Shown one piece after another: positions 42,461 through 55,290 of a stretch of DNA of 64,000 nucleotides. Source of the DNA: a virus. The notes below the pieces were generated by a model. The model worked only from the letters and a program-made list of their open reading frames with translations, was not told where the DNA came from and did not search any database. The DNA lies in IMG/VR virus record IMGVR_UViG_3300046737_000169, positions 1-64,000 of that record; one strand, given 5' to 3'. A program made the position numbers and the translations under genes. How positions within the stretch are numbered: the stretch's first letter is position 1; the number at the start of each line of letters is the position of its first letter.

Positions 42461-42471
42461 GATTGACGCCC

Positions 42472-42708
42472 ATGAAAGTGATAGCCACCTCGGTCAGTGA
42501 CGAAGAATTGATAGTCCTGCAGGACCGCGCAGACAAGTCCGGTCTGACGATCGCGGCGATGATCCGCGCGGGCCTGCGCTTACCAGCCGCCCGTAGGCGC
42601 GGGCGCCCAGGCGACGCGGTCAAGTGCAATATCTGCCGGCAACTGGTCAGTATCTCGTCGCTGGCCAAGCACCGGAAGGAGCACAAACTTGCCCTCGGAG
42701 CAGCCTAA
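42472..42708 (+). CDS. Ribbon-helix-helix regulator with C2H2-like finger
   Basis: VIATSVSDEE...LQDRADKSGLTIAAMIR; CNIC..HRKEH. Confidence 0.65.
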   Translation: MKVIATSVSDEELIVLQDRADKSGLTIAAMIRAGLRLPAARRRGRPGDAVKCNICRQLVSISSLAKHRKEHKLALGAA

Positions 42709-42928
42709 CGTACCGAGTCTCGAAGAGCGCATCCTGGCGCTCCTGAAGCATGTCGGAGAACCCGGCCGCTGCCGGGGCTGCGGATTGGCGATCTACTGGG
42801 TCCGTCACCCGGACTCCGGCCGTAACGCGCCGTACGATCCAGACGGTGTGAACCATTTCATCACCTGTCCGCGCGCCGACGACTTCCGGAAGAAGAAGGC
42901 GTTGGCAAAACGAGCCGCCCCGGCGTAA
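42689..42928 (+). CDS. Small Zn-binding phage protein
   Basis: CRGCG..I.W..P.DPDG.NHF.TCP. Confidence 0.65.
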   Translation: MPSEQPNVPSLEERILALLKHVGEPGRCRGCGLAIYWVRHPDSGRNAPYDPDGVNHFITCPRADDFRKKKALAKRAAPA

Positions 42929-42989
42929 TATCAGGAATCCAGTTTTTTTTGGAAGAGTCCCGTTTACGGGAAAGGGATGAGGAGATCAA

Positions 42990-43685
42990 ATGAAGAAGAT
43001 GTTTCTCGCGTCCGCGCTGGCACTGGCCTGCTCGGCGAATCTGGGAGCCACTCTGCTCAGCACGCTCGTTGCTGGCGGTTCGCTTTCCAATGCCAACATC
43101 ACCATCGATAACTTCGCGTTCACGCGCACTTGCAGCGGCGTCGGCGTATGCGCGCCCTTGGACGCCAGCGGTATTGACGTAACGCTGGTAGGCAATCAGA
43201 TCCGCTTCGCCGGCGGCTTCACCGCCCTTAGCAATGGCGGCTTCGCTACCGCAGATTTCCTCATCGCCTACGATCTTCAGTCCACTCTCGCCATTGGCGG
43301 CGTGGGTCTGCTGTTTAACGGCGCCGTAGTGGGAGATCAGTCCGCCGCCCAAGTGGTCGAGACCGTGCTGGCGACCGTGCCCTTCCTGCACGTCGCCGGT
43401 CAAGCCCAGGTCAACGCGCCCGGCGGCCCGCTCGCTGATGTGGCTATCCTCGACGCCGCCTACCAGGATCTGCGGATCGTCAAGGACATCTTCCTCGTGG
43501 GCTCCGATACCGAGGGCCTCGGCTACGCGACGATCTCGCTGATCGATCAGTTCTACGCCGGACCCGGCGTTGACCCGTTCTGCGTCGATGGGACGTGCGA
43601 CGATGTGCCGGAGCCGGGCACCTACGGCCTGATGGGCTCGGCCCTGATGGGCATCTACCTGATCCGCCGCCGTAGGGTAAGCTAG
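42990..43685 (+). CDS. PEP-CTERM sorting domain protein (moron)
   Basis: Signal peptide; C-terminal VPEPGTYGLMGSALMGIYLIRRRR. Confidence 0.9.
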   Translation: MKKMFLASALALACSANLGATLLSTLVAGGSLSNANITIDNFAFTRTCSGVGVCAPLDASGIDVTLVGNQIRFAGGFTALSNGGFATADFLIAYDLQSTLAIGGVGLLFNGAVVGDQSAAQVVETVLATVPFLHVAGQAQVNAPGGPLADVAILDAAYQDLRIVKDIFLVGSDTEGLGYATISLIDQFYAGPGVDPFCVDGTCDDVPEPGTYGLMGSALMGIYLIRRRRVS

Positions 43686-43724
43686 AGTCTCTTCCTCCTC
43701 CAGGGAAGCGAAGCTACGAAACTC

Positions 43725-43773
43725 AAAAGGGCGTCCCGGCAACCATCATCACCGGGGAACGCCCTTTTTTTTT
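43725..43773 (+). terminator. Rho-independent terminator
   Basis: AAAAGGGCGTCCCGG..CCGGGGAACGCCC followed by T9. Confidence 0.75.
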
Positions 43774-43790
43774 ATTTCGAGGTGAAACAC

Positions 43791-44585
43791 ATGCTCAAAA
43801 TTTCTGTCCTCGCGACATCGAGCGCCGGCAACGCTACGTTCGTCAGCGATGGAACCACCCGCCTGTTAGTCGATGCCGGACTCTCGCTCTACGACACCGC
43901 CGAGAGGCTCGCCGCGATCGGCGAAGACATCGACCGGATCAACGCCGTGCTCCTGACGCATCCGCATTCGGACCATGCGTTCGGCCTCACTACGCTCATC
44001 AAGCGCTGGCGCCGCGGCGGCGCCTTCGTGCCGGTGTACTGCTCGGCCTCCACATTCGAGGCGCTCGGCCAGATGATTCCGCCGCACTGGTATCGGCACG
44101 TTGCCCAGCACGACGAGTGGAAGGTTGGAGAATTGCACTGCGAGACGTTCGCCGTCGAGCACGACACCGGCGAGCCGCTCGGCTTCACCGTCGCCGATAC
44201 CGGGGGCAGGCGCGCCACGTTCGCGCTCGACCTGGGCAAGATCGACGGCTACCTGGGCGAGTACCTCGCCTGTGCGGAAGTGCTGTTCCTCGAGTCCAAT
44301 CACGATCCGGAGATGCTCGCGGCCGGACCGTACCAGTACAAGCTGAAGCAGCGCATCGCGCAAACGCACTTGTCGAATGCAGCCGCCTGTAAATGGATCG
44401 AGGAGCACATGACCTCGCGTACGGGTCACTTGCTCCTCGGTCACTTATCGAAAACCACCAACGATCCGGAACTGGTGCGCCTGATGGCCATGCGGGCGCT
44501 CAACGAGCGCGGCCTGGATTCGGGCGTCGTCGAAGTGATTGCGCCGGGAGAGCCGCCTTCAGGGCCGCTCGTCATCGACGACTAG
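43791..44585 (+). CDS. MBL-fold metallo-hydrolase (YycJ/WalJ-like)
   Basis: SSAGNA, LLVDAG, THPHSDH, EHD, LESNHD..L..GPY, HLSN, HLS..N. Confidence 0.9.
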   Translation: MLKISVLATSSAGNATFVSDGTTRLLVDAGLSLYDTAERLAAIGEDIDRINAVLLTHPHSDHAFGLTTLIKRWRRGGAFVPVYCSASTFEALGQMIPPHWYRHVAQHDEWKVGELHCETFAVEHDTGEPLGFTVADTGGRRATFALDLGKIDGYLGEYLACAEVLFLESNHDPEMLAAGPYQYKLKQRIAQTHLSNAAACKWIEEHMTSRTGHLLLGHLSKTTNDPELVRLMAMRALNERGLDSGVVEVIAPGEPPSGPLVIDD

Positions 44586-44836
44586 CACTCGCAGTTCTGC
44601 CAGGAGCGCCCGCACTCCGAGCAAAGGCCGGTGCGCGGGTGTCCAGCCGCCTGAGCGTAGGTGTCGGTCCAGGGCTCGGTCGTCGCCTCGACGGTCTGGC
44701 GCAGAACCAGGTCGTCGTCCGCCGGCTCAGCCGCCTGAGGTTCAGCCGCCTGAGTCAGCCGCCTCTTCTTCTCGGCGTTGGCCGCCTGCATCCGCGCCAG
44801 GGCCTCGCGTTGCGCGGGCGTCATCGGTATTGCCAT
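44582..44836 (-). CDS. Early-region hypothetical protein
   Basis: GAGGAG RBS; C-terminal CSECG..CEC. Confidence 0.6.
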   Translation of the reverse strand: MAIPMTPAQREALARMQAANAEKKRRLTQAAEPQAAEPADDDLVLRQTVEATTEPWTDTYAQAAGHPRTGLCSECGRSWQNCEC

Positions 44837-44849
44837 AGCTTTATTCTCC

Positions 44850-45119
44850 TCACGACTTCGGCCTCTTGGGGCAGTTGGCCCAGTGCCCGCGCAGGGTCGT
44901 CCCGCTGATGATGGCTCCGCAGCCCCACCAGCACTTGACCGACACGCCCTTGGGCCTCCCCAGGTTCCGGGGATCGCCCTTCTTGCGCCCCGGCTTCTTC
45001 TTCGGCGGTCCAGCCGCCCGTGCGGCGCTCACCGAGTTCGGGCACTCGGTGTGGTGCGCCTGATCGAGCCGCTCGAAAATGAACAGCCCGCAATTGCACT
45101 CAACCTGTTGTTGTTCCAC
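44850..45119 (-). CDS. Basic Zn-binding early protein
   Basis: GAGGTG RBS; CNC..H..C and CWWGCG..H...C. Confidence 0.6.
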   Translation of the reverse strand: MEQQQVECNCGLFIFERLDQAHHTECPNSVSAARAAGPPKKKPGRKKGDPRNLGRPKGVSVKCWWGCGAIISGTTLRGHWANCPKRPKS

Positions 45120-45123
45120 TCCC

Positions 45124-45184
45124 TTCACCTCTCATTGGGGAAATATCCCAGGAGGAGCGCTCGCAAGCGCCCTCCCTGCGATGC
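45124..45184 (-). repeat. Intergenic two-hairpin element, copy 1
   Basis: GCATCGCAGGGAGGG-cgcttgcgagcgc-TCCTCCTGGGATATTTCCC..GAGGTGAA. Confidence 0.85.
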
Positions 45185-45355
45185 TTACCGCATGTTGGCG
45201 ATCATCTGGTTCACCTTGCCTTGCCGCTTGTCCGGCGGCAGCGCGTCCATGATGTGCTGCGCCAGCATGAGCACCGCATGGGCCTCCTGCTTCGACATCT
45301 CGACCGTGATCTTGTCTGTGGTCTTCTTCAACTGGTCCTCGTTTCCCGCGTCCAT
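45185..45355 (-). CDS. Early-region hypothetical protein
   Basis: MDAGNEDQLKK..; stop abuts the repeat. Confidence 0.5.
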   Translation of the reverse strand: MDAGNEDQLKKTTDKITVEMSKQEAHAVLMLAQHIMDALPPDKRQGKVNQMIANMR

Positions 45356-45416
45356 CCGGCGATGGATTCGCGCCTGGAGCCGCCCGTCAGGACGGCCCCT
45401 CGGTGCGAGCCCTCCG

Positions 45417-46202
45417 CTACCGCGAGAACGGCTCGACAAAGATCGCGTACTCGCGCCCCTTGCCAATGCCCTCGATGGTCACCGTCTCGCACGCGCCGTC
45501 CATGCCGAACGCTTCCCAGAGTTGCCGGGTCCGCTCGTCGCTCCGGCCTACGGTGAACAGTAAGCTCGGCTCAGGCGCGGGCTCGACCTTGAAGTACATG
45601 CCATCGGCGAACCACTCGGCGAGGTGGGCGTGGACGTGGAACGAGGCGCTGCCGATCTGCATCGTGGAGTACAGCGACACCGGCGCGCCCCCGGTGTCCT
45701 GGACCGGCACGCCGTCGCGGTACTCGTCATCGCCGATAGCCTCCTCGTTGACCTTCCACTCGAAGTCGCTCGCCCTTGAAATGCGCACCACGTCGTCCTC
45801 GTTGTACTCGCCAGCACGCGCACCCGGCTGCGGAATCGGCGAACAGTCCTCACGGTCGCACTCGGACACCTCGCCCGCCCAGTCGCAGTGAGTGCAGTAC
45901 GCGGGCGAGTCCGGCCCCCACTCGCGCGTGTCGTCCTCGACCTCGGTTTCGACATGGTCGATCCCGTGATCGACGATGCGCGCCTCGATGTTCTGCGTCA
46001 CATACAGCTTGTCGGACTTCGCGCACCTGGGGCAGCAGAAACGCGGAGTGTAGATCCCTGCGGCGTCCTTGATTCCGAGCGCCATGCCCGCCCGTTTAGC
46101 CGCCAGCCAATCGTTGTAGCTCATCTGCGTGACGTTGTGCGCCACGTCCGCCTGCCAGTCTTCCACCGGCCACAGAATTTCAGTCGCCTGTTTTACGTCC
46201 AT
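45417..46202 (-). CDS. Acidic Zn-ribbon early protein
   Basis: GAGGTG RBS; CPRC..CTHC. Confidence 0.65.
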   Translation of the reverse strand: MDVKQATEILWPVEDWQADVAHNVTQMSYNDWLAAKRAGMALGIKDAAGIYTPRFCCPRCAKSDKLYVTQNIEARIVDHGIDHVETEVEDDTREWGPDSPAYCTHCDWAGEVSECDREDCSPIPQPGARAGEYNEDDVVRISRASDFEWKVNEEAIGDDEYRDGVPVQDTGGAPVSLYSTMQIGSASFHVHAHLAEWFADGMYFKVEPAPEPSLLFTVGRSDERTRQLWEAFGMDGACETVTIEGIGKGREYAIFVEPFSR

Positions 46203-46366
46203 CACTTCACCTCTTCTTCTTTCTCTTCGCCCAAAAATAGAAACAGCCAGCACTCGGTCCCTTCCACCTCCAGCGTCTCGCCGCTGAGGAGGATCACGCC
46301 GTCGTCGCCTACCCGCTCCTTGACCTTCGCCACAAACCGCCGCAACTCTTTGACCGTGACCGCCAT
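46202..46366 (-). CDS. Early-region protein (54 aa, not in ORF track)
   Basis: MAVTVKELRRFV..EEEVK*; TGATG coupling at both ends. Confidence 0.6.
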   Translation of the reverse strand: MAVTVKELRRFVAKVKERVGDDGVILLSGETLEVEGTECWLFLFLGEEKEEEVK

Positions 46367-46665
46367 CACTTCACCTCAACCTTTCTTCGGTTCTCTAATA
46401 CGTGCGCGATGGCCTGCTCGACCAACGCATCGCCCAGGCGCGCAAAGCGCCGGTCAGCCGCCTGTCGGGCGCGCTTCTCATACTCTTCGCGTGACCACGG
46501 GAGGAACACGGCCCGCCCGCCCAGGCCCTTGGCCTCGATGCGGCACTCTTCGCGCGTCATCAGGTAGCTGAGCCCCGGAGCCTTGAAAGTGTCGCGCCAC
46601 CGGCCCGTGACCGGATCTCGGCGCGAGCCCTGTAGCTTGTACTCAAACACCGGCTTCTTCTTCAT
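46366..46665 (-). CDS. Early-region hypothetical protein
   Basis: Coupled; ends EVK*. Confidence 0.6.
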   Translation of the reverse strand: MKKKPVFEYKLQGSRRDPVTGRWRDTFKAPGLSYLMTREECRIEAKGLGGRAVFLPWSREEYEKRARQAADRRFARLGDALVEQAIAHVLENRRKVEVK

Positions 46666-47207
46666 CGCTTCCCCTCCATCGGACACGCCTCGTCATGCTC
46701 TTCGCCGTACCAGGAGCGGTCGTCGCAGTCGCACACCGGGTCGTAGTCGCTCCAGTGGTTGTCCAGGTGATCGGCCAGATCCTTCGCGCCAGCCGCCCGT
46801 AGCGCGGCGAGGATAGCCGCGTGCTGCTCGCTATCGACCAGCAACTGCCGCACGCCCGTAGGTTCGTCGTCGCCCTCCTCTTCGTCGTTGGCCTTGTCCG
46901 CGCAACCGGGGCAAAGCTCGCGGTCCTCAGAGTCCCATCCCCAGTCGCCTGAGTCGGACGGGTTCACGTCCACGCGCTTGCACTCTTCGCACACGCGGAT
47001 GCCCGCCTCGTCGTTGCCGATCCAGACCCACGCCTGTACGTAGGCCCCGATATCGTCCTCGCCGTCGCGCGACACCGGCGCTTCGTCGTCCACCTCCAGC
47101 GTGCCTTCGTCGTAGTGAACGCGGATGGCCGCTGCCCGGTAGGCGTTGTCCAGGAGTTCTTTGTTGTCCTCGTTCATCGGGCTCGCATCACGAACCTTCT
47201 TTGCCAT
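46662..47207 (-). CDS. Acidic Cys-rich early protein
   Basis: GAGGTG RBS; LEVDDEAPVS..GAYVQAWVW; CEEC..CPGC. Confidence 0.65.
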   Translation of the reverse strand: MAKKVRDASPMNEDNKELLDNAYRAAAIRVHYDEGTLEVDDEAPVSRDGEDDIGAYVQAWVWIGNDEAGIRVCEECKRVDVNPSDSGDWGWDSEDRELCPGCADKANDEEEGDDEPTGVRQLLVDSEQHAAILAALRAAGAKDLADHLDNHWSDYDPVCDCDDRSWYGEEHDEACPMEGKR

Positions 47208-47401
47208 CACCTCACCTCCCTGGCGCGGGCGCGCTTGCGCTCGCGCATCCAGATATCGTCGTCGCGCCGGTCGTTGTCGCCAACAAGCCAGCCCATCATC
47301 CACATGCTCTGCTCGATCTTGGAGAGCGTAGCGGGCGCTTCGCAGGGAAGTCCCCGCAGGCCCGCCGCGCGCCCGTCATCGGAGACGTTAGGCTTTGCCA
47401 T
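47207..47401 (-). CDS. Early-region hypothetical protein
   Basis: GAGGTG RBS; coupled. Confidence 0.55.
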   Translation of the reverse strand: MAKPNVSDDGRAAGLRGLPCEAPATLSKIEQSMWMMGWLVGDNDRRDDDIWMRERKRARAREVR

Positions 47402-47885
47402 CGCCCTTCACCTCCATGTCAAGCTCCAGCCGCTCGCACAGGTCTTCGAGCGAAATGCCTTCGCAGATGTCGTCGTTTTCGAGTTCGACAACATCGCCGT
47501 CTTCGCCGAAAGCATCCTGCAACTCCTGCTCTAGTTCGTGCAGCGCATCCCAGTAGTGCGACTGCGCCGCCTGCGCCCGTTCGAGTGAATCGCGCACCTC
47601 GCGGTGTGGGTCCGGCTCCGGCTCTTCTTCTGCCGCTGGCCCCTGGTCTGAGAACACCTCGAAGCGCCCGCGCCAGTCTTCCATGAACTCGCCCAGGTTG
47701 TCGTAGATATCCGCCTCGCCGGGTTCGTCGCCCACCTGGACCTGCATACTCGCGCCGCTGTTCTCGCGCAGGTAGACCGGCAACCGGCGCGGCTCTGACT
47801 TGAGCTTGCCGTGCGCGGCGATGTCCGGGGGCAATGCCCCGGCATCGACTATGCCGATTTGAAACGTCACTTTCTTCGCCGCCAT
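47388..47885 (-). CDS. Highly acidic early protein
   Basis: GAGGTGAAGTGATG junction; D/E-rich. Confidence 0.65.
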   Translation of the reverse strand: MAAKKVTFQIGIVDAGALPPDIAAHGKLKSEPRRLPVYLRENSGASMQVQVGDEPGEADIYDNLGEFMEDWRGRFEVFSDQGPAAEEEPEPDPHREVRDSLERAQAAQSHYWDALHELEQELQDAFGEDGDVVELENDDICEGISLEDLCERLELDMEVKGDGKA

Positions 47886-48166
47886 CACTTCACCTCCTCG
47901 AAGCGGATGCGGAACTTCCGCCCGTCCTTCGTTGTGATCTCTTGGCCGTCCTCGAACTCCAGAGAGTTGATGAACATGAGCGTCCCCGGATGGTCAGGGT
48001 CTTCCTCGTCCCCCGGATACTCCAGTCCGTTCACCTCGGCCTCGCGCTCGGCCAGCCGCCGCGCCGCCCCAAATTCGTCGTCGTCCGGCTCGGCCTCCAT
48101 GAGTGCGCCACTCAAGCAGTCCTCATCGGCTCCGTACTCGCGCCACTGCAAAATCGTCAATACCAT
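47885..48166 (-). CDS. Highly acidic early protein
   Basis: Starts after repeat copy 2; ends EEVK*. Confidence 0.6.
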   Translation of the reverse strand: MVLTILQWREYGADEDCLSGALMEAEPDDDEFGAARRLAEREAEVNGLEYPGDEEDPDHPGTLMFINSLEFEDGQEITTKDGRKFRIRFEEVK

Positions 48167-48173
48167 TACCGCT

Positions 48174-48234
48174 TTCACCTCGGGAAGTGTCCCAGGAGTG
48201 GCAGCCGCCCGTGCTGCTGCCCTCCCTGCGATGC
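48174..48234 (-). repeat. Intergenic two-hairpin element, copy 2
   Basis: GCATCGCAGGGAGGG-cagcagcacgggcggctg-CCACTCCTGGGACACTTCCCGAGGTGAA. Confidence 0.85.
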
Positions 48235-48238
48235 TTTC

Positions 48239-48811
48239 CTAGACCGTCACCGGCACAAACTTCCAGTCCTGGCCCAGCGAGTCCTTCATGTCTTCCAGGC
48301 ACGCATAGTCATCGTCGTCACCGGCCCCCTCCATCGCCACGCGCACCAGACCGTCCGAGAGCCGGTAGACCTTGAACGCAGTTCCCTCGCCGCTCTCAAT
48401 CGAGCCCAGGTGCTCACCCGGATACGGCTGCGGCTCGTCGAACACAAGCACCGGCGGGTCTTCCCACGGCCCCTCGGAATCCCAGTAGTCAACCACCTTG
48501 TCAACCTCGGACATGAGCGGCTCAAGCGCCATGTGGTAGTCGTTGATTACGTCGTAGCCGGAGTTGCCGTAAATCAGGACCACTTCGCCCAGGAGCGCCA
48601 GCCGCCCGTCCGCGTCGCGCGTGGCATCCACATACAGGTGGTCGTCGTCGGTCGTCATGAGCGCGCGCATGATCTCGTTCGCCTTGCGTGATTGCCACAA
48701 GACAATCTCTTCGCCGTTGTGGACGCTGATGTTGTGGCCCCTGGCGAGCGCAGTCTGCACAAACGTGCCGATCACATGCCGCTCGATAAACTGCCTGATT
48801 CTCACTGTCAC
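48239..48811 (-). CDS. Early-region protein
   Basis: ISVHNGEE..LMTTDDD..VVLIYGN.G.DVINDY pattern. Confidence 0.65.
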   Translation of the reverse strand: MTVRIRQFIERHVIGTFVQTALARGHNISVHNGEEIVLWQSRKANEIMRALMTTDDDHLYVDATRDADGRLALLGEVVLIYGNSGYDVINDYHMALEPLMSEVDKVVDYWDSEGPWEDPPVLVFDEPQPYPGEHLGSIESGEGTAFKVYRLSDGLVRVAMEGAGDDDDYACLEDMKDSLGQDWKFVPVTV

Positions 48812-49188
48812 TTCTTCACCTCTTCTTTCGCTTCCTGATTCAGCTTCGCTTCGAGCGCCAACTCGGCCTGGACTACCCGCCTGTACTCGCGCGTGGGCTC
48901 CCAGATGCCGCAGAGGCACTGGAGCAGGTTGTCTCCGGCTGAGTCCCACAGTTCGCAGTAGTAGGCTTTATCCTCCGGCTGAATGATGCCGCTGGGCCGG
49001 TCCAGGTGCGCGTCCTTGTCTATGTCCCACTCGAAATACCAGTCCTGATCGAGCGCGAACCGCTCAGCCGCCGCGAGCTTCTCAGCGGTGCGCACTTTGC
49101 CTTGCTCGGGCGTCTCGCGCGTGTCGTCCCAGGAGTAGCCCGCGTTGTCATAGAAGAACGCCGCCGCGCCCTTCAGAATCGTTGCCAT
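48808..49188 (-). CDS. Early-region protein
   Basis: GAGGTG RBS; FFYDNAGYSW..LAAAE..LCGI..YRRVVQAELALE. Confidence 0.7.
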   Translation of the reverse strand: MATILKGAAAFFYDNAGYSWDDTRETPEQGKVRTAEKLAAAERFALDQDWYFEWDIDKDAHLDRPSGIIQPEDKAYYCELWDSAGDNLLQCLCGIWEPTREYRRVVQAELALEAKLNQEAKEEVKK

Positions 49189-49223
49189 CTTTCACCTCGC
49201 TGCGGGGAATGCCCGCTTACTAG

Positions 49224-49252
49224 ATTGTGCCAGGATCAATAGTCGCGTGCAA
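49224..49252 (-). promoter_or_regulatory. sigma70-type early promoter
   Basis: TTGCAC-17-CACAAT; contains TTGATCCTGGCA, also present at 55169-55180. Confidence 0.6.
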
Positions 49253-49407
49253 CTATTTTCCTGGGATATTCGGAAAGAATTAGCCGCCTGTCAGCCGCCT
49301 GTCAAAGTTCAGCCGCCCGTGCCGGCAGCCGCCTGTCGCCGCGGGCTGCCGGCGCGAGCGCCGCGCCCTGGCGCGGGACCGGCGCGGGACCGGCGCGCCC
49401 TGGCGCG

Positions 49408-49584
49408 CTACCCGATGCGCGCCTCGATGGTCGAGAGCAGCAAGTCCGCCTGGATCTGCTGCGTCCAGAACGCCTGGGCAATGCGCGGCGTTTCCCAGGC
49501 CGTCTCGGCGCTCTTCTGGTAGATGTCTATCGCCACGCGCAGCGCGCCCTGAACGACGCGCAATTGTTCTTCGGTCAAGTTCAT
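49408..49584 (-). CDS. Early-region hypothetical protein
   Basis: Starts after repeat copy 3. Confidence 0.6.
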   Translation of the reverse strand: MNLTEEQLRVVQGALRVAIDIYQKSAETAWETPRIAQAFWTQQIQADLLLSTIEARIG

Positions 49585-49587
49585 CGG

Positions 49588-49646
49588 TTCACCTCGGGGA
49601 AAGTATCCCAGGAGGGGCACTCACCTGAGTGCCATCCCTGCGATGC
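49588..49646 (-). repeat. Intergenic two-hairpin element, copy 3
   Basis: GCATCGCAGGGATGG-cactcaggtgagtg-CCCCTCCTGGGATACTTTCCCCGAGGTGAA. Confidence 0.85.
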
Positions 49647-50378
49647 TTATGCCGCCGCCTGCGCGCCCGCGATCTGGATGAGCGCCGCCTGCACCCGCTT
49701 CCGGCCCGCGCCGTGTGCGGCGAAGCCGATCACGATGCGCTCTTCGCGCAGCCGCGCGTCGTCCCAGCACAACCGGCAGCGGATGCACTGCGTGCCGTGG
49801 GTATCGTGCGGGCAGGGCAGCACGGTGAATCCAGCCGCATGTTTCCATGCCTTCGCGCCCGCGTGCGCGGCCACGACGAGCGCCGCCGCCCAACCTTGGG
49901 AGAGTGCCTGCGTCACGTCCGCCGCCGTCTCACACGACGCCAGAACCGACACCGCGCCCCAGGAGGCGCGCTTGACCTTGCGCCATGCGTGGGTGTAGGT
50001 CCAGGCCCGCCGCCGGTCGCGCCGCATGAAACGCTCAGCCGCCCGTGCGACGATGCGCGCCGCGCCGTTGGTCCGGCAGTCGCCCACGATATGGAGCCGC
50101 AAGTCATGCAGGCCCGACAACCGGTCAATCTCGCGCGCCTCTTGCCGCGCGATCAGGAGCGGGTCAACCTGGGCGCGCCGCCCGCCCGCCGCCGCGTTCA
50201 GCTTCGCCGTCTGCATCCCGACGCGGTCCTCTTCGCCGTAGCAGCCGCCGCCGTCAAAGAACGCGCAGCCTGGGTCACATGACGGCTGAGCCGCGCTCGT
50301 ATTCGAGCACGGCCCTGTTTTCGAGTTCCCGCTAATCTCTACCGCTTTGGCGAGCGGCTCGCGTAACGTGGGATTCAC
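49647..50378 (-). CDS. Cys-rich Fe-S/radical-SAM-like phage protein (Gp88/DUF7227-like)
   Basis: SGNSKTG..SCDPGC......CY; RLHIVGD; WTYTH; CP..CIRCRLC; IGFAAHG. Confidence 0.65.
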   Translation of the reverse strand: MNPTLREPLAKAVEISGNSKTGPCSNTSAAQPSCDPGCAFFDGGGCYGEEDRVGMQTAKLNAAAGGRRAQVDPLLIARQEAREIDRLSGLHDLRLHIVGDCRTNGAARIVARAAERFMRRDRRRAWTYTHAWRKVKRASWGAVSVLASCETAADVTQALSQGWAAALVVAAHAGAKAWKHAAGFTVLPCPHDTHGTQCIRCRLCWDDARLREERIVIGFAAHGAGRKRVQAALIQIAGAQAAA

Positions 50379-50626
50379 CGCGCCGCCTCCGCTGGCCGCT
50401 TGTCCCCGGCGAACATCGGCGCGGGCGGAATCCAGCCAAGCTGGGTTAGCACGGCTTCGAGTTCTTCGCAGTCCTCGTCCGTTGAGCACAAGCCCGCCGC
50501 CCATGCCTCACGCGGTCCGCGCGACTCATGCCCGTCAGCCTGCCCGCGCGCCCACCAGCCGCCCGCCGCGCCCAGGCCCGCGACTACCGCCGCGAGCGCG
50601 GCAACCTCAGCCACGCGCCGCCTCAT
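50375..50626 (-). CDS. Small membrane-anchored protein
   Basis: N-terminal TM; CSTDEDC. Confidence 0.55.
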   Translation of the reverse strand: MRRRVAEVAALAAVVAGLGAAGGWWARGQADGHESRGPREAWAAGLCSTDEDCEELEAVLTQLGWIPPAPMFAGDKRPAEAAR

Positions 50627-50877
50627 CGGCCCGCCCCTTCCTTCGGAAAGTCGGTGTAGGCGTCGTCAAAGGCGCGCTTGATGACCATGCGCCCGTAGAA
50701 TGGCCCATCCGTCTCGTCGGGCTGGTCCGCCTGCGCCCAGTGCATCAAGTCCTGAATCAGGTCGCGCGCCGTGTCGCCGTCGATCGGGCGCGTCTCATTC
50801 AGGTGCAGGGCATACGCCGTAAGCACCGCCCGCGCGCGCGCCGCGCAGGCTTCGTTCTTCTTCGTCAATACGTACAT
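50623..50877 (-). CDS. Early-region protein
   Basis: N..RA..L.AY..DLIQDLMHW pattern; after repeat copy 4. Confidence 0.65.
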   Translation of the reverse strand: MYVLTKKNEACAARARAVLTAYALHLNETRPIDGDTARDLIQDLMHWAQADQPDETDGPFYGRMVIKRAFDDAYTDFPKEGAGR

Positions 50878-50880
50878 CGG

Positions 50881-50951
50881 TTCACCTCGAAAGAATTGGG
50901 AGAAGCCCAGGAGGGACGCGAGCCGCCACGCTCGCGCCATCCCTGCGGTGC
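50881..50951 (-). repeat. Intergenic two-hairpin element, copy 4
   Basis: GCACCGCAGGGATGG-cgcgagcgtggcggctcgcg-TCCCTCCTGGGCTTCTCCC..GAGGTGAA. Confidence 0.85.
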
Positions 50952-50953
50952 TC

Positions 50954-51253
50954 TCAAATCGTGCAGCAGCCGCAGCAGGGCGCGTCTTCGCACCGGCCCG
51001 CCTTGTTGCGGGTAAACACCGCGCCACTGCTGAACCGGATCACCGACACTGGCGCGTAAGCATCCCGCCAGTACGGCGAGCGCTGCCCCTTCTTCGCCCG
51101 CGCCCGCCTGGGCGCGCCCGCCTCAACGAGCGCCCGCGCCTCATCGGCCCGCGCATCGGGCACGCGCCACGCTTTGAGCGCCGCATCCCAGTCGCCGCCC
51201 ATAGCGCGCAACTCGGCCCGGTGCGGGTACGTGTTTCCCGTAATCATTGCCAT
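50954..51253 (-). CDS. Conserved early phage protein
   Basis: GNTYPHR..L...GG.WD...KAW; C-terminal GRCEDAPCCGCC. Confidence 0.7.
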   Translation of the reverse strand: MAMITGNTYPHRAELRAMGGDWDAALKAWRVPDARADEARALVEAGAPRRARAKKGQRSPYWRDAYAPVSVIRFSSGAVFTRNKAGRCEDAPCCGCCTI

Positions 51254-51256
51254 TGT

Positions 51257-51451
51257 CTAGTCCTCCTCATCAATGGGCTCATCGGCCCAGTAGTTCGCAT
51301 CAGTGAAAATTTCCGGCCTGTACTGGGCGCGTTTCTTCGCCTCGCACCGGCTGCACACGTAGCCGCAGGCAATGCCGCGTGCGTCATAGAGCACGTAGCG
51401 CGTCTGGCCGGAGCCGCACCCGCACGGGCGTATCGGAGGGAGCCAACTCAT
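51257..51451 (-). CDS. Small Zn-finger early protein
   Basis: CGCGSG..YDARGI....C..C..YRPEIF. Confidence 0.7.
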   Translation of the reverse strand: MSWLPPIRPCGCGSGQTRYVLYDARGIACGYVCSRCEAKKRAQYRPEIFTDANYWADEPIDEED

Positions 51452-51681
51452 GACCGGCCCCCCTTCTTTCTGGCCGCGCGTTCTTCCCGCTCGGCGCGTG
51501 CGAGCAACTTGCTGGCTAGGTCGTAAACGGCGTCATAGGGAACCGCGAGCCTGCGCCGCGTCCCCTTCAATCGCAGTTCAATATGTGATGGGTGCAACTC
51601 GACCAGGAGGGCGCGTGTGCGCCCCTGGTCCCTTTTGAGCGTCGCCGTCTCCCGGCGGACCGGCTTATCGAGGCGCGTCAT
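51448..51681 (-). CDS. Basic early protein
   Basis: MTRLDKPVRRET..RLKGTR; TAATG coupling. Confidence 0.6.
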   Translation of the reverse strand: MTRLDKPVRRETATLKRDQGRTRALLVELHPSHIELRLKGTRRRLAVPYDAVYDLASKLLARAEREERAARKKGGRS

Positions 51682-51848
51682 TACAGCGGCTCCGATTCGA
51701 TCAGGATTACATCGTTGACCCGGAGCCCGGTCACGCGCCGCGTTTCGCCGTCCGTCTCCACGTACACCGGGCGCGAGCCCGCGCCCTGGACCTGAGCGGT
51801 CCAGAGCAGCTTGGCTAGCTCCGCGCCTGAGAGCGTGTCGATTCTCAC
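51681..51848 (-). CDS. Early-region protein (55 aa, not in ORF track)
   Basis: GTG RIDTLSGAELAKLLW..; coupled at both ends. Confidence 0.5.
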   Translation of the reverse strand: MRIDTLSGAELAKLLWTAQVQGAGSRPVYVETDGETRRVTGLRVNDVILIESEPL

Positions 51849-52102
51849 CGTACACCGTCCGGCAGTACAGTCACCTCACCGGCGAGCGTGCCGGGGTAGC
51901 GGTCGCCCGCCGCCATGCGCCCGCCTGGGGACACCGTCACCAGTCCGCGCGCAATGTCCAGCGCGTGATGTACGCTCGGGCCTGCCTCGAAACGGAACCG
52001 CTGCGAGCCGCCGCCGTACCTGGGTTCAAAAGTTTTCTCGACCGTGACGCCCCAACGGCCATCAATCAGGTCAAGATGAACGGACACGATTTGGTTTTCC
52101 AT
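51845..52102 (-). CDS. Early-region hypothetical protein
   Basis: GAGGTG RBS. Confidence 0.6.
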   Translation of the reverse strand: MENQIVSVHLDLIDGRWGVTVEKTFEPRYGGGSQRFRFEAGPSVHHALDIARGLVTVSPGGRMAAGDRYPGTLAGEVTVLPDGVR

Positions 52103-52115
52103 CGCTTCACCTCTT

Positions 52116-52295
52116 CTAGAACAACTTCGGCTGCGGGTCCGATACCGGAGCCGCGAACAAACCGCCCTGCTCGACGCGAGCGCGCCGCAGCTTGCGGCGC
52201 TTCTCTTCCGGCGTCAAGGGACAGTCAAAACCAGCCGTCAACTGCTCGCCCAGGAGGCGCGCTTGGTCGTCCGGCTGCTCTTCTATCTCGATCAC
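52116..52295 (-). CDS. 59-aa stand-alone paralogue of a polyvalent-protein segment with two QxxLF motifs (not in ORF track)
   Basis: MIEIEEQPDDQARLLGEQLTAGFDCPLTPEEKRRKLRRARVEQGGLFAAPVSDPQPKLF; GAGGTG RBS; 32/46 identical to the segment encoded at 17653-17790. Confidence 0.85.
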   Translation of the reverse strand: MIEIEEQPDDQARLLGEQLTAGFDCPLTPEEKRRKLRRARVEQGGLFAAPVSDPQPKLF

Positions 52296-52310
52296 GATTC
52301 ACCTCTCTTT

Positions 52311-52341
52311 GACTATACGCCAGTAACAACGATTTGGTTAC
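52311..52341 (-). promoter_or_regulatory. ECF-sigma-like promoter, copy A
   Basis: GTAACCAAA-N13-CGTATAGTC; same boxes and spacing at 55195-55225. Confidence 0.65.
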
Positions 52342-52360
52342 TAAATCTTGCGAAATATTT

Positions 52361-52729
52361 TCAGGACTCGGCTTCAACCGTGTGGCGCTCGACTTCCTCC
52401 CCCACAAACGGCTCGCGCGGGTCCGCGTGGACCGTGACCGGCCCGCCGCCGCGCCCGTCGTCGTAGGTCAGCGACACCGCGCCCAGGCACCGGCGCAGGC
52501 CCTCGGCTGCCGCCTCCTGGTCGTTGATCCGCCGCAGGACGATGTTGTACACCTCGGACTCGCCGTCCGAGAGCGTGTGCTTTTCCACCGCCAACCGGCT
52601 GAGGTAGTCCCCGGCCTCGTCTTCGATGTAGATCATTTCCAGCGGAGTGGTGCGGGCGAGCAGTTCTAGCTCGCGCGCAAGGTCCGCCGCCGTCATCACC
52701 ACGGCTGTATGCGTTCTGGTCATCATCAC
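52361..52729 (-). CDS. Early-region protein
   Basis: After repeat copy 5; TLSDG.SEVYNIVL motif. Confidence 0.6.
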   Translation of the reverse strand: MMMTRTHTAVVMTAADLARELELLARTTPLEMIYIEDEAGDYLSRLAVEKHTLSDGESEVYNIVLRRINDQEAAAEGLRRCLGAVSLTYDDGRGGGPVTVHADPREPFVGEEVERHTVEAES

Positions 52730-52731
52730 GT

Positions 52732-52810
52732 TTCACCTCGAAAAGAATTACGGGAAAGAATCCCACCGGCGCGGGCGCGCCCGGTCACACGCGCCCGCCC
52801 TCTGCGACTC
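52732..52810 (-). repeat. Intergenic two-hairpin element, copy 5 (divergent)
   Basis: GTCGCAGAGGGCGGGCGCG-tgtgaccggg-CGCGCCCGC..GGGATTCTTTCCC..GAGGTGAA. Confidence 0.65.
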
Positions 52811-52812
52811 TC

Positions 52813-53118
52813 TTACCGCTCGCCCGCCAGACACTTGCGCTGGCCTTCGCGCACCGACTCGACAATGGCGCGATGGCGCGCCGTCTCCCAGTCCGCCTCA
52901 TAGCCCGCCATGACCGGCGAGGCCGCCAATGGCCGCACGCTGGACAGTTCGACCCACTGGGCGCCGTCGCCCGCCACCGGCGCCACTTGCAGCCGCTGCT
53001 TACCCCAGGACGCCTTGACATCGATCACCCGGCAGTCAATCCACAGTTCACCGGCGCGCAACTGGCACAACTCGCCCACTGCGCCAATCATCCCCGTTGC
53101 CGTGTAGCGCGTCGTCAC
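52813..53118 (-). CDS. Early-region protein
   Basis: V.DVKASWG..R.QVAPVAG.G..WV pattern. Confidence 0.65.
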   Translation of the reverse strand: MTTRYTATGMIGAVGELCQLRAGELWIDCRVIDVKASWGKQRLQVAPVAGDGAQWVELSSVRPLAASPVMAGYEADWETARHRAIVESVREGQRKCLAGER

Positions 53119-53627
53119 TAGCTCACCTCCGGCTTAATCAGATCGCCGCGCCCGTTGATGCGGATTCCCTTGGACGCGCCCAACTCGGGCTCGACCGGGC
53201 ACTGGATCGCCGCCGCGAGCCGCTCGGCCTTCCGGCGCTTGGCCACGTTCCAGCGCTTGACCACCGGCGGGAATCCCGGCTTCTCTTTGAGCGGGGATAT
53301 CTCACAGCCGAACTCGCACCCGATCCCGTTGCGCTGCCAGTCCAGGTCTTCCGGCTTAGCCTCGTACCATTTCGGCAACGTGACCGGGCGCGACATGATC
53401 CCCAGGTAGCCGTCCGACTCGAAGTAACCCATCACCACCGCCGGTCCGATGTCGTTCATCTCGATGCGGACCATCTGCCCGACTTCGGGCAGCGGGTTCT
53501 CACCGGACCACTTCAGCGCAATCCCGCGCTCATTGTGGAACTCGCGCATGGGCGAGCCCTCATCGTCAATCAGCCGCCCCGTGGCCATTGGCCGGGGGAT
53601 AAAAAACCGCTCTTTCATGCGTTCCAT
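53118..53627 (-). CDS. Early-region protein
   Basis: After repeat copy 6; WSG..P.P.VG..V....IG...V.GYF..DGYLG. Confidence 0.65.
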   Translation of the reverse strand: MERMKERFFIPRPMATGRLIDDEGSPMREFHNERGIALKWSGENPLPEVGQMVRIEMNDIGPAVVMGYFESDGYLGIMSRPVTLPKWYEAKPEDLDWQRNGIGCEFGCEISPLKEKPGFPPVVKRWNVAKRRKAERLAAAIQCPVEPELGASKGIRINGRGDLIKPEVS

Positions 53628-53637
53628 AATCTGACCT

Positions 53638-53709
53638 TTCACCTCGACAAGAATTTCGGGAAGTCTCCCAGGAGTGGCGCGCGCGATCCGCGCGCCCTCC
53701 CTGCGGTAC
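53638..53709 (-). repeat. Intergenic two-hairpin element, copy 6
   Basis: GTACCGCAGGGAGGG-cgcgcggatcgcgcgcg-CCACTCCTGGGAGACTTCCC..GAGGTGAA. Confidence 0.85.
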
Positions 53710-53713
53710 TTTC

Positions 53714-53896
53714 CTATTCGCCCGCCCGCGCCCAGAAGCGCACCGTACCCATGCGGTCCAACCACTTGATTTGCGCCCGGTAGGACTCGCCGTCCGCCAG
53801 ATACGCCGCGACGTTGAACAGGATCGACGCGCCCACCCCAGGCGCAACCGTGTCGATCCGCTGCAAGATGATCCCGTATGGGCTGAGGCGCGCCAT
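53714..53896 (-). CDS. Early-region hypothetical protein
   Basis: TAATG coupling. Confidence 0.55.
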   Translation of the reverse strand: MARLSPYGIILQRIDTVAPGVGASILFNVAAYLADGESYRAQIKWLDRMGTVRFWARAGE

Positions 53897-54510
53897 TAGA
53901 AGAGCCTCCCTTGATCGCCCGTCTCGACCGGCGCAGCCTGGGCCGCCTCGGCGAGCTTGACCGCCTCCGCGCCCGCCTTCGAGAGCACCCGCGCCAAGAA
54001 CCCCTCGATCCGGGGAATCTCTTTGTTGAGGTACGCCACCTTGCGGTCGATATCGTCCTGGCACCGCTTGACCCAGACCGCGCCGCCCTCGCCGCGCCGG
54101 TCCAAGCTGCGCTCATGGTCGCCGTTGCGCTCCACGTCGTACACCGGATGAAACAGCCAACTGGACTCGGTGAAAATATCCTTCCCGCCCGCGTCCGCGA
54201 TGAAATAGAGCCCGCTCCCGAAATACTCGCGCCCGCGCGGCATGGCCTCCACCGGCCCGGTGAGAATCTCCAGGTAGTTCCGGTATTTCACCAGCAACTT
54301 CGCATTCTTGCGGTAGAGCGTGCCGAGCGTGGGCGTCGCCTGGAGTATCCGGTCGATACAATCGAGCCCGTACTGCTGAACCAAGCCGTCCTTGTACGTC
54401 ACGCGCGCCACATGCTTAATGCCCTGGCTGCACCGGTCGCAGCACTGAACCGGGGACGCCGTGTAGTAGTACACCGAGCGCACCGCCGTCGTTCCTAAAA
54501 TCTGAGTCAT
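53896..54510 (-). CDS. Zn-binding early protein ending in QGRLF
   Basis: CDRCSQGIKH..YGLDC; C-terminal clamp-binding-like motif. Confidence 0.7.
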   Translation of the reverse strand: MTQILGTTAVRSVYYYTASPVQCCDRCSQGIKHVARVTYKDGLVQQYGLDCIDRILQATPTLGTLYRKNAKLLVKYRNYLEILTGPVEAMPRGREYFGSGLYFIADAGGKDIFTESSWLFHPVYDVERNGDHERSLDRRGEGGAVWVKRCQDDIDRKVAYLNKEIPRIEGFLARVLSKAGAEAVKLAEAAQAAPVETGDQGRLF

Positions 54511-54520
54511 AATTCCTTCC

Positions 54521-54591
54521 TCACCTCGAGTTTTCGGGAAGTCTCCCAGGAGGGAGGCGCGCCCACTCGCCGCGCCCCATCCCTGCGGTAC
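54521..54591 (-). repeat. Intergenic two-hairpin element, copy 7
   Basis: GTACCGCAGGGATGG-ggcgcggcgagtgggcgcgcc-TCCCTCCTGGGAGACTTCCC..GAGGTGA. Confidence 0.85.
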
Positions 54592-54834
54592 TTACCGGAT
54601 GCCCGCGAGCCGCTCGGCGATTTCGCGCTCGCGCTCGGCGAGCACTTCCTTGGCCCGCACAACCTGCTCAGCCGCTACCCATACCTGCACGCGCGGGGGA
54701 GGCAAACGCTTGTCCCTCCACTTGGGATGCTCCATCCGCGAATAGATCCCCGCTGCAATCAGCGAATCGAGCAGGCCCGCCGCCCGCATCCCCGTCGCCG
54801 TCTCGGCAATCAACGTCATCGTCGCCTGCGCCAT
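54592..54834 (-). CDS. Early-region protein (DUF2007-like)
   Basis: A.LL.S.L.AAGI..VQVWV.......AKEVL pattern. Confidence 0.55.
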   Translation of the reverse strand: MAQATMTLIAETATGMRAAGLLDSLIAAGIYSRMEHPKWRDKRLPPPRVQVWVAAEQVVRAKEVLAEREREIAERLAGIR

Positions 54835-54837
54835 GAC

Positions 54838-55137: not shown

Positions 55138-55194
55138 CTCTGTCTTCTCACCTCGATCTAGAATTTTCTGCCAGGATCAAACGATCCTACATAC

Positions 55195-55225
55195 GACTAT
55201 ACGACAATGCGAAGGTTTTGGTTAC
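55195..55225 (-). promoter_or_regulatory. ECF-sigma-like promoter, copy B (head of early array)
   Basis: GTAACCAAA-N13-CGTATAGTC. Confidence 0.65.
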
Positions 55226-55290
55226 ATATCACACAAAGATTTCTCAAAATAATTTTGTGGCGTTGTAACCGGCTTTATGCTCATACATAT

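Follow-up and report, generated by a model that had tools for sequence, protein, structure and literature searches.

A strand-polar DNA word clustered in the early region of uncultured soil phages: a possible Chi-like signal

Which process would keep one short word at high density, and in a single orientation, over the early region of a viral genome? The question is raised by an array of 20 exact copies of the octamer CAGCCGCC, all of them on the + strand, that spans 42584..53578 of the 64,000-nt stretch of DNA analysed here (hereafter the window), the first part of a 73.8-kb phage genome. No complement copy occurs in this interval, and each of the 20 same-orientation positions listed in an earlier note on this DNA proved to be an exact match. 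As that note had also remarked, copies elsewhere are few: the window holds only four more (5984 and 28447 on the + strand, 3542 and 5288 on the - strand) and the part of the genome that lies past it (64001-73764) has none, giving strand tallies (top:bottom) of 20:0 in the cluster and 22:2 in the whole genome. Among 32,811 octamers the word ranks only 20th genome-wide, behind GC-rich low-complexity words of the CCGCCGCC type; inside the array region it ranks 2nd and is the strongest outlier with respect to the remainder of the genome.

Extent of the word and level of selection

The octamer singled out by the earlier note is enriched as claimed, but the full word is longer, an 11-mer of the form CAGCCG(C/T)C(C/T)GT whose positions +9 to +11 favour Y-G-T. 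CAGCCGCCYGT has 11 exact copies, every one on the + strand and inside 42584-50038, and a T variant at 52232 raises the CAGCCGYC count in the array to 21. No second conserved box was found within 45 nt on either side of the word across 77 sites, and hence the word is not a promoter.

The simplest account of the array would be that it is a functionless by-product of composition, codon usage, repeated peptides or simple tandem repeats. The + strand of the region is indeed C-rich (C 0.36, G 0.29), many copies encode Ala-Ala in acidic linkers (e.g. QAAE, RTAE), and unrelated viral contigs often have tandem coding repeats that contain the octamer. Dinucleotide shuffles of the whole window gave 7.65 +/- 3.4 copies on both strands together, and none of 100 shuffles reached the 24 observed. 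Markov models of orders 1-3 fitted to the region predict 1.1-2.2 copies on the + strand, much as the earlier rough estimate of one or two had it, versus the 20 seen, and 0.35-0.44 copies of the complement versus none. Two codon-aware nulls that keep all protein sequences, a within-gene shuffle of synonymous codons and a redraw from the codon usage of the region, yielded 2.4 +/- 1.4 and 1.7 +/- 1.2 genic copies, respectively, versus 15 seen, and the highest genic count among 1000 codon shuffles was 8. A 7- to 10-fold excess is nonetheless left over the Markov and codon-aware nulls. Furthermore, genic copies draw on GCT, which is rare among the Ala codons (43 of 477), copies are carried in three frames, by genes on both strands and by intergenic DNA, the other 60 kb of the genome contain just two antisense copies, and the array is kept across relatives with differing genes. 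The by-product account is thus already contradicted, by the nulls and by conservation in relatives, and we regard it as extremely improbable.

Regarding the level at which the word is maintained, 15 of the 20 copies lie inside ORFs and five are intergenic. In - strand genes, eight copies are read as GCG-GCT, four as CGG-CTG and one as GGC-GGC, and the two copies in + strand genes are read as GCC-GCC. Since 15 genic copies are found where about two are expected, their frames are mixed and five further copies are intergenic, the data support selection on the array at the DNA, and not the protein, level. The earlier note had argued for nucleic-acid-level selection from the different frames and from genes on both strands, and the enrichment persists under the codon-aware null that it had itself named as a refuting test.

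Anatomy of the array region

In every family member the left edge of the array is the gene for a tyrosine integrase (40426..41241, - strand). Its right edge is the head of the early operon (55138..55300, - strand), with the promoter GTAACCAAA-N16-CGTATAGTC, which has a twin at ~52.3 kb; there is no copy of the word in either of the two main early promoters. Eighteen of the 20 copies fall within the leftward early operon (44582..55137, - strand), on its template strand. Its ~27 small genes have GAGGTGA ribosome-binding sites, and for most of them no function is known. The two remaining copies (42584 and 44380..44390, the latter in the + strand gene of an MBL-fold hydrolase) hold the + strand orientation within an island of + strand genes (42463..44585; RHH-like, PEP-CTERM moron, MBL hydrolase). 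Local arrangements of the word vary along the operon. Three + strand copies spaced 13-15 nt apart (44728..44763) lie inside a small - strand gene (44582-44836) and translate as QAAE repeats of an acidic linker, and the copy in a hairpin that had been reported before is that at 48202, where a repeated intergenic element forms its inner hairpin. The tandem copies previously placed in the gap 49281-49333 form an intergenic + strand run of four units (49281..49336; starts 49281, which is degenerate, 49292, 49310 and 49326), flanked by a GC-rich hairpin region and a leftward sigma-70-like promoter, TTGCAC-17-CACAAT (~49225-49254).

Such an arrangement would also suit a signal that acts in RNA or during transcription. 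In that case, 5'-ACRGRCGGCUG-3' would recur every few hundred bases of the leftward early transcripts, and a factor of phage or host origin (e.g. an endoribonuclease, a protein that binds RNA or one that moves along with RNA polymerase) would read it so as to set the timing of early expression, stabilise it or shut it off. The array coincides with a leftward transcription unit that begins at the 55.2-kb promoter and reaches the integrase, and 18 of the 20 copies have the G-rich form on the sense strand, the first five bases of which, GGCGG, are shared with the ops element, GGCGGTAG. Moreover, the convergent genes that meet at 44582-44585 overlap at their stop codons and leave no room for a terminator, and leftward transcription could thus read through into the + strand island. 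However, the sites in + strand genes would work only through such antisense read-through RNA, the word comes without accompanying structure or a second element, and we know of no system in which 20-40 copies of an RNA word of 8-11 nt lie inside ORFs. Taken together, we consider a role in RNA or during transcription quite improbable.

Conservation and polarity in related phages

No relatives of the phage were found among 185,579 species genomes, and no cultured relative was found either, its TerL being at most 26% identical to that of any cultured phage; all protein relatives are metagenome-derived. Seven related phage contigs from IMG/VR or metagenomes have a one-strand array at the same place, and the word is on the same strand in all relatives examined (G001-G003, G006, G007, G009 and L229, the phage of this record being G000). 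The carriers of the array form a family of soil phages that are temperate, uncultured and 73 kb in size, in which 20-40 same-strand copies of CAGCCGYC(YGT) extend across 11-14 kb, from the integrase gene to the early promoter. When sites of the homologous early regions with up to two mismatches from CAGCCGYCYGT are counted, the top:bottom ratio is 38:2 in the phage of this record (~38 + strand sites versus 2 on the other strand, within 42001-56000) and 43:4, 43:5, 37:3, 34:0, 18:5, 15:1 and 13:1 in the seven related contigs. Across the array region, most genes of these relatives do not align with those of G000, and individual sites turn over; the copy at 44380 is at the same position in G002 and, as a T variant, shifted by one codon in G001. 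Of the 44 sites that lie within confident ORFs of four genomes, 12 belong to genes on the + strand and 32 to genes on the - strand, and every one of the 44 occupies the top strand: polarity tracks the genome strand, not the gene strand. The maintenance of density while positions turn over is the behaviour of a Chi- or KOPS-type word.

Other features of the family would fit a protein that binds the word. The preferred form differs by member (CAGCCGCC in G000, CAGCCGTC in G001, CCGCCTGT in L229), and 11-bp units directly abut in non-coding runs (starts 0, 11, 33 and 44 in G006; spacings of 11 and 11 in L229), the spacings of the G000 run being 11, 18 and 16. In both G000 and G006 a sigma-70-like promoter has its -35 box 30-35 bp downstream of the tandem run, despite unrelated flanking genes. 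The array might consist of sites for a sequence-specific DNA-binding protein, most likely phage-encoded (e.g. RepB/ParB-like HTH), which would coat the early-left operon, silence it or organise it as a stoperator-like or domain-marking system, with the four-unit runs as nucleation sites beside the promoter. Its 11-bp consensus corresponds to one helical turn, the array is kept to one regulatory domain, and a candidate reader is at hand in the RepB/ParB-like HTH protein encoded at the operon head (55207..56136, + strand, divergent from the early operon), which is present family-wide with 52-56% amino-acid identity and is the only such HTH protein near the array. Family members stress different positions of the word, and stoperator consensus sequences reportedly vary between mycobacteriophage subclusters. 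A comparable case is known from the stoperators of Cluster A mycobacteriophages, where the phage immunity repressor binds as a monomer to asymmetric sites that number more than 20 (PMC9283540). A static DNA-binding protein, however, leaves the strict single-strand polarity unaccounted for, and this polarity is independent of local transcription (12:0 in + strand genes), whereas stoperators follow transcription. Likewise, three quarters of the G000 sites (15/20) are intra-ORF and positions turn over among relatives, both main early promoters are devoid of copies, and the tandem-run-plus-promoter module is missing from G001-G003. ParB and RepB proteins, for their part, normally bind palindromes, and on balance we deem binding sites of this kind a rather unlikely explanation.

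The Chi-like reading and comparison with known systems

The reading we favour, at somewhat less than an even chance, is that the word may be a host Chi-like signal for a RecBCD- or AddAB-type helicase-nuclease, because the anatomy of the array matches that of the Chi arrays of LLS and MD8, temperate phages that lack a Rec module. Six-frame HMM searches of the whole genome gave no match to RecT, ERF, YqaJ or lambda Gam, which matches the class of phages with no Rec module and many Chi. PHROGs and Pfam revealed no recombination or anti-RecBCD function among the early genes, many of which are of unknown function, so an unrecognised module is possible. Under the Chi-like reading, a phage family without a recombination module of its own would maintain a dense, uniformly oriented set of copies that extends from the integrase gene across the leftward early operon. 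Packaging cuts, rolling-circle tails or entering DNA would provide a free double-strand end on the terminase-distal side, where a host end-processing enzyme would load and travel leftward until it reads 5'-CAGCCGYC-3', with YGT on its 3' side, on the strand whose 3' terminus is at the entry end. At the word, the enzyme would turn from degradation to RecA loading, and the phage DNA would be spared and recombined (cyclised or concatemeric), not destroyed. We infer the host enzyme as reader, the strand read and the location of the DNA ends by analogy.

The large terminase gene, which starts within the window (63333..64000, + strand) and runs to 65306 in the genome, fixes a terminase-left map on which the sites occupy the top strand at 0.74-0.89 of genome length (KS versus uniform, p = 2e-8), with the last 11% empty of copies. 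By the geometry of lambda, LLS and MD8, the word would be read as 5'-CAGCCGYC-3' on the top strand and not as its complement, the G-rich GGCGGCTG that the earlier note had put forward for testing in hosts. The soft positions of the word lie 3' of the top-strand octamer, on the same side as the flank whose context modulates E. coli Chi (PMC5041463). A Chi-like signal is also the best available analogy for the undescribed Chi or translocase/loading motif that had been suggested previously; the further suggestion that it guards the first-injected genome end is unsupported, since the contigs of relatives end at differing map positions, G001 has a 127-bp terminal overlap of the kind that a circular assembly gives, and the 8 kb nearest the terminase genes hold no copy of the word.

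Several observations count against the Chi-like reading. The Chi words known to us, those of E. coli and Pseudomonas among them, are G-rich, and this one is C-rich on the strand predicted by lambda geometry. The array is limited to the stretch between integrase and early promoter, a confinement that coincides with one transcription unit; the terminase-proximal 8 kb are free of copies and the other 60 kb of the genome show no strand bias, and MD8 has 15 of its 32 sites elsewhere. The information in the word extends across 11 positions, with emphasis on different parts in different family members, a member-specific preference that is easier to explain by a co-evolving phage-encoded reader, or else by differing hosts. 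Its genome-wide rank is also low for a Chi, which is the top octamer in LLS, P1 and MD8. Lastly, pattern scans of IMG/VR found dispersed 11-mers in no phages outside this family, and thus there is no evidence of a word shared by unrelated phages. A possible, if doubtful, alternative is that the word is not a host Chi but a new polar cis-signal that would mark the whole early operon for a tracking machine, such as a phage-encoded loader or clamp of the RepB/ParB type, or a factor that moves along with RNA polymerase.

Among known systems, KOPS (FtsK) and chromosomal Chi are likewise oriented 8-nt words, selected for number over position and tolerated in genes, but they are distributed over entire replichores, changing strand at ori and dif, whereas the array described here covers one 11-14 kb phage domain; the KOPS word GGGNAGGG has no consistent pattern in four genomes of this family. 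The stoperators of L5 gp71 and its relatives resemble the array: an asymmetric word of 11-13 bp has more than 20 copies, their orientation is strikingly biased and the phage is temperate, with ~63% GC. The L5 stoperator core GGTGGCTG is one base off GGCGGCTG. Stoperators of Cluster A mycobacteriophages are nevertheless located in promoters and short intergenic spaces genome-wide, in an orientation that follows transcription (PMC9283540), whereas 75% of the G000 sites are intra-ORF, within one 11-kb stretch (42.6-53.6 of 73.8 kb), and orientation in this family is constant in oppositely transcribed genes (12 + strand and 32 - strand sites).

The word differs from the known Chi of E. coli, GCTGGTGG, and of Pseudomonas, GCTGGCGC, neither of which is enriched or has a top-strand excess in four genomes of the family (2-11 copies per strand, with the bottom count at least equal to the top one in seven of eight cases). 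Phage P1, cited in PMC12315714 for its 50 Chi in 94.8 kb and its RecBCD-dependent growth, is a further temperate phage enriched in a host hotspot word, presumably to exploit host recombination at its DNA ends; its word, however, is the known E. coli Chi and is spread genome-wide, and its ends and packaging mode are known. LLS and MD8, temperate Rec-module-less phages with Chi arrays, were described in 2025 in Genome Res: in the E. coli phage LLS, Chi occurs 20 times on the top strand and 3 times on the bottom strand and is clustered toward the right end, and the P. aeruginosa phage MD8 has 32:0 copies of the experimentally defined Pseudomonas Chi (PMC12315714). By our own count, 17 of the 32 MD8 sites lie between the integrase and a ParB-like gene and 15 elsewhere, with the main cluster at 0.56-0.75 of the map and the last 8% empty. 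The 17 sites follow the leftward early-left operon, where they are antisense to the genes, fall in mixed frames and form tandem runs in the gaps. The G000 word departs from both systems in not being a known Chi, in being C-rich on the predicted strand and 11 nt in consensus, in being missing outside the early-left stretch and not the top octamer genome-wide, and in belonging to an unrelated, uncultured 73-kb lineage. Like LLS and MD8, G000 is without RecT, ERF, exonuclease or Gam, and it shares with them the use of one short word, present in 20-32 copies that are nearly all on the top strand of the terminase-left map and concentrated on its right-hand side; with MD8, in addition, it shares the anatomy of an array that extends from the integrase into the early-left operon.

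Polarity and enrichment of the octamer array

The octamer CAGCCGCC forms an array on the + strand between positions 42584 and 53578. All 20 copies listed in the earlier note were recovered in this single orientation, and the other 62 kb of the genome hold just two further + strand and two - strand copies; Markov models of orders 1-3 predict between 1.1 and 2.2 + strand copies in the region. The enrichment persists under codon-aware nulls that keep every protein intact, with synonymous codons reshuffled gene by gene in one version and drawn anew from the region's codon usage in the other. Fifteen genic copies are observed, against 2.4 +/- 1.4 and 1.7 +/- 1.2, respectively, and the highest count in 1000 trials was 8. 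Moreover, the copies make use of the rare alanine codon GCT (43 of 477 Ala codons) and are spread over three frames of - strand genes, + strand genes and intergenic DNA. Taken together, these results indicate that the enrichment is real and acts on the nucleic acid, as the earlier note had proposed, naming loss under a codon-aware model as what would refute it. The original observation is hence confirmed and strengthened, and a compositional artefact, contradicted by both types of null and by conservation of the array among relatives, has next to no probability left.

The flanks of the octamer lengthen it to an 11-mer, C-A-G-C-C-G-Y-C-Y-G-T, with A disfavoured immediately 5' of it. The exact form CAGCCGCCYGT occurs 11 times, always on the + strand and within 7.5 kb. 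When up to two mismatches are allowed, the 42-56 kb region contains 38 top-strand and 2 bottom-strand sites, as opposed to 38 top and 54 bottom in the other 57 kb, nearly all of which are two-mismatch background. Over four genomes and 77 sites, the +/-45 nt around the word hold no further informative position, which excludes a two-box promoter; a promoter or activator box was accordingly rejected. Neisseria-type DNA uptake sequences, which are not polar, were also discarded, given that their required CTG is present in only half of the copies and that the word is polar. A literature search for the octamer returned nothing relevant.

Genomic setting and conservation among relatives

The window covers bases 1-64000 of one 73,764-bp virus contig. 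In the relative G001, itself closed by a 127-bp assembly overlap, only about 40 bp separate the counterparts of our contig's two ends, and our genome is therefore essentially complete. The large terminase gene (TerL, 63333-65306) and a tyrosine integrase gene (int, 40426-41241) frame an early operon of some 27 small - strand genes, mostly of unknown function, which runs from 55137 down to 44582 and uses GAGGTGA as ribosome-binding site. A 2-kb + strand island, encoding an RHH-like protein, a PEP-CTERM moron and an MBL-fold hydrolase, separates this block from the integrase. The integrase and the - strand block reading towards it make this a temperate phage with a lambda-like early-left operon. 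A polyvalent virion protein of 3546 aa with ddrB-ParB and DUF7178 domains is encoded at 13132-23772; its size had first hinted at an N4-type virion RNA polymerase, and N4-like virion RNA polymerase promoters were rejected as an account of the word because the protein is of the polyvalent type and not a polymerase.

No cultured relative emerged from a tblastn search of cultured phages with TerL (best identity 26%). In sequencing runs the phage stretch is found only in soil, sediment and plant metagenome contigs, with no RNA source among them; these contigs are fragments and yielded neither genome ends nor usable variant statistics. Scans of genome contigs for the host with a 634-aa virion protein and with a TerL alignment gave no match, protein-database matches came solely from metagenome sources, and the window contains neither a tRNA gene nor an Rfam match by which attP might be placed.

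Searches of IMG/VR with the virion protein and TerL did recover relatives of 73-74 kb that are syntenic with our phage. Their structural genes share 72-79% DNA identity with ours, and the early operon is mostly not alignable. Every relative carries the word at the equivalent location, starting at the integrase and continuing across the early operon, and always on the same strand. CAGCCGYC occurs 25 times on the + and 5 times on the - strand of our genome, 24/7 in G002, 27/14 in G001 and 22/2 in G003, of which 21, 21, 22 and 15 + strand copies, respectively, fall in the homologous stretch. For the 11-mer with up to two mismatches, top:bottom counts in the early regions of seven relatives are 43:4, 43:5, 37:3, 34:0, 18:5, 15:1 and 13:1 (ours, 38:2). 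Individual sites mostly lack positional conservation, the exception being a site in the + strand MBL hydrolase gene, which keeps its position in G002 and appears in G001 as a T variant displaced by one codon. What is kept is the density of the word and not its position. The consensus also varies: position 7 is preferentially C in our phage and G002, preferentially T in G001, and mixed in G003 and in a tandem run of the relative G006, and the relative L229 emphasizes the 3' part of the word (CCGCCTGT).

When IMG/VR was scanned twice for double or triple copies of the word, most matches were coding tandem repeats that lacked the YGT flank, and dispersed 11-mers appeared in members of this phage family only. 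The tandem run had no match above noise in a blastn search of cultured phages. An SMC-like ATPase, a ParB-N protein (32823-33686) and a Rep initiator (36553-37491) are encoded on the + strand at 29-37.5 kb; among relatives, the ParB-N gene is present in G002 only and the Rep initiator has no homologue in G001-G003, so that replication and partition modules are exchanged inside an otherwise syntenic family. Iterons of the Rep initiator (36.5 kb) were rejected as an explanation of the word, since G001-G003 keep the array without that gene.

Tandem runs, neighbouring elements and possible readers

The tandem intergenic copies and the hairpin copy of the earlier description were both verified. The gap at 49189-49407 comprises, in leftward order, a GC-rich hairpin region, a run of four word units, an AT-rich stretch in which a sigma-70-like promoter lies, and finally the next ribosome-binding site. 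The same module recurs in G006, where the flanking genes are unrelated to ours, the units start at 0, 11, 33 and 44 bp and the promoter has the same start (GAAAATA..TTGCRC); the module is absent from G001-G003. Further short runs are intragenic, and there the word translates as QAAE, RTAE or QTAD within acidic linkers.

A repeat unit of 11 bp, with units abutting next to a promoter in two genomes, is what might be expected of an array of sites for a DNA-binding protein, and a family-wide candidate exists in a RepB/ParB-like HTH protein whose gene diverges from the operon head (55207-56136, + strand; 52-56% conserved in relatives) and which scores 26.8 bits against Pfam RepB, just under the cut-off. 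Most sites are nonetheless intragenic and turn over between relatives, their polarity is strict regardless of gene direction, and none of the three testable features that define stoperators (PMC9283540) is found in our array. We therefore regard a DNA-binding protein as an unlikely, if still serious, reader.

Of the genic sites in four genomes, 12 lie in + and 32 in - strand genes, and all 44 are on the top strand; orientation consequently tracks the genome strand, not the direction of coding or transcription. A signal in the early RNA, or one read during transcription, would account for confinement of the word to the operon, but it has no precedent and would need antisense read-through for sites in + strand genes, which makes it distinctly improbable.

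Several other elements accompany the array. A repeated intergenic element sits between stop codon and next ribosome-binding site at 45120-45184, 48167-48238, 49585-49646, 50878-50953, 52727-52812, 53640-53713 and 54511-54591. The outer stem (CAGGGAGG ... CCTCCTGG) is conserved and encloses a variable hairpin, which in one of the elements contains a copy of the word (48202); a TTCCC tract followed by GAGGTG comes next. The element resembles a signal for RNA processing or translational coupling, akin to the RNase III sites in the early RNA of T7. Twin promoter-like sequences (GTAACCAAA-N16-CGTATAGTC) of ECF-sigma rather than sigma-70 type occur on the - strand at the head of the operon (55138-55300) and 3 kb downstream (52296-52360); no sigma factor gene was seen. 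Following the RepB/ParB-like gene, 1.5 kb of non-coding G-rich direct repeats (56250-57640; GTGGAGGGAGTTTT five times, TGGGGGCGTTCGTGTTT three times), near which GC skew changes sign, form a candidate centromere-like site, origin or packaging site.

The PEP-CTERM surface-protein moron (42990-43685) is mobile: five loci (L231, L233, L234, L236 and L237) encode it at 75-79% aa identity among different neighbours and with no word array around, and identity reaches 84% in the syntenic L229 and in protein-database matches. It probably marks a shared host range. The longest contig with one such homologue, at 89 kb, exceeds the phage genome. Two other phage contigs, which encode relatives of the DUF7227 protein (49647-50504), carry strongly one-strand words of their own: L003 repeats GGTC(G/T)GGGT about 15 times, and L008 has 19 copies of GCCAGGGC. 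These may be further cases of the phenomenon, each with a different word.

The Chi-like reading and phages without recombination modules

Among the readings considered, that of a Chi-like signal of the host appears the best supported, and it has a close published precedent; yet we hold it tentatively, at somewhat under an even probability. To our knowledge, characterised Chi words are G-rich, and this word is C-rich on the strand that lambda geometry would assign to it. The earlier note had proposed to test the G-rich complement in hosts, an assignment that should probably be reversed, for lambda geometry predicts a C-rich top-strand word, and its placing of the array at the first-injected genome end is a supposition; reading the complement would require enzyme entry from the integrase side, which is unsupported here. 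The same restraint follows from the sharp limitation of the array to a single transcription unit (no copies occur in the 8 kb closest to the terminase genes, and elsewhere there is no strand bias), from the different positions of the 11-nt consensus emphasized by relatives and from the restriction of dispersed copies to this family in both IMG/VR scans. Lastly, the Chi-like proposal stands as regards its anatomy, which matches that of two phages with published arrays, LLS and MD8, but the Chi words established for E. coli and Pseudomonas show no enrichment or polarity in this phage family.

Should the word be a host Chi, it would be the Chi sequence of an uncultured soil bacterium found via its phage, and would be unusual in being C-rich on the strand that is read, in its length of about 11 nt and in having a degenerate position. 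The strategy of dispensing with a recombination module and carrying many Chi, described in 2025 for lambdoid phages of enterobacteria and Pseudomonas, would then reach an unrelated 73-kb lineage, with a bearing on how phages evade end-dependent degradation and CRISPR spacer acquisition, and hosts could be predicted by looking for MAGs whose most skewed octamer is this word. If it is not Chi, a strictly polar word running through unrelated genes of one operon, without a described reader, would suggest that phages control their early genes at a further, new level.

One class of lambdoid phages lacks a recombination module and has many Chi; in a terminase-left map almost all of them are top-strand, and they crowd towards the right end (PMC12315714, Genome Res 2025). 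E. coli phage LLS has 20 top and 3 bottom sites, and P. aeruginosa phage MD8 has 32:0 of the biochemically defined Pseudomonas Chi, GCTGGCGC (PMC12315714). In the model of those authors, RecBCD enters the free right end that terminase leaves behind and travels leftward, reading Chi on the strand whose 3' end sits at the entry end (PMC12315714). In the same map our array occupies 0.74-0.89 of the length, with its sites on the top strand and the first of them just right of int (0.71), and six-frame HMM searches of our genome likewise found no RecT, ERF, YqaJ or Gam. Our finding thus probably belongs with these phages, with a word of its own that is no characterised Chi. E. coli Chi is modulated by 3'-flank context (PMC5041463), and in our word it is 3' of the top-strand octamer that the soft positions lie. 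The ParB-like protein of MD8 has no homology to either ParB-like protein here. The likeness to MD8 extends to anatomy. By our own count, the stretch of MD8 at 24.1-32.5 kb, which starts inside int and runs via the leftward early-left operon to the ParB-like gene, contains 17 of the 32 Chi, with 7 antisense to genes in mixed frames and 10 intergenic, tight runs included, and this is the anatomy of our array.
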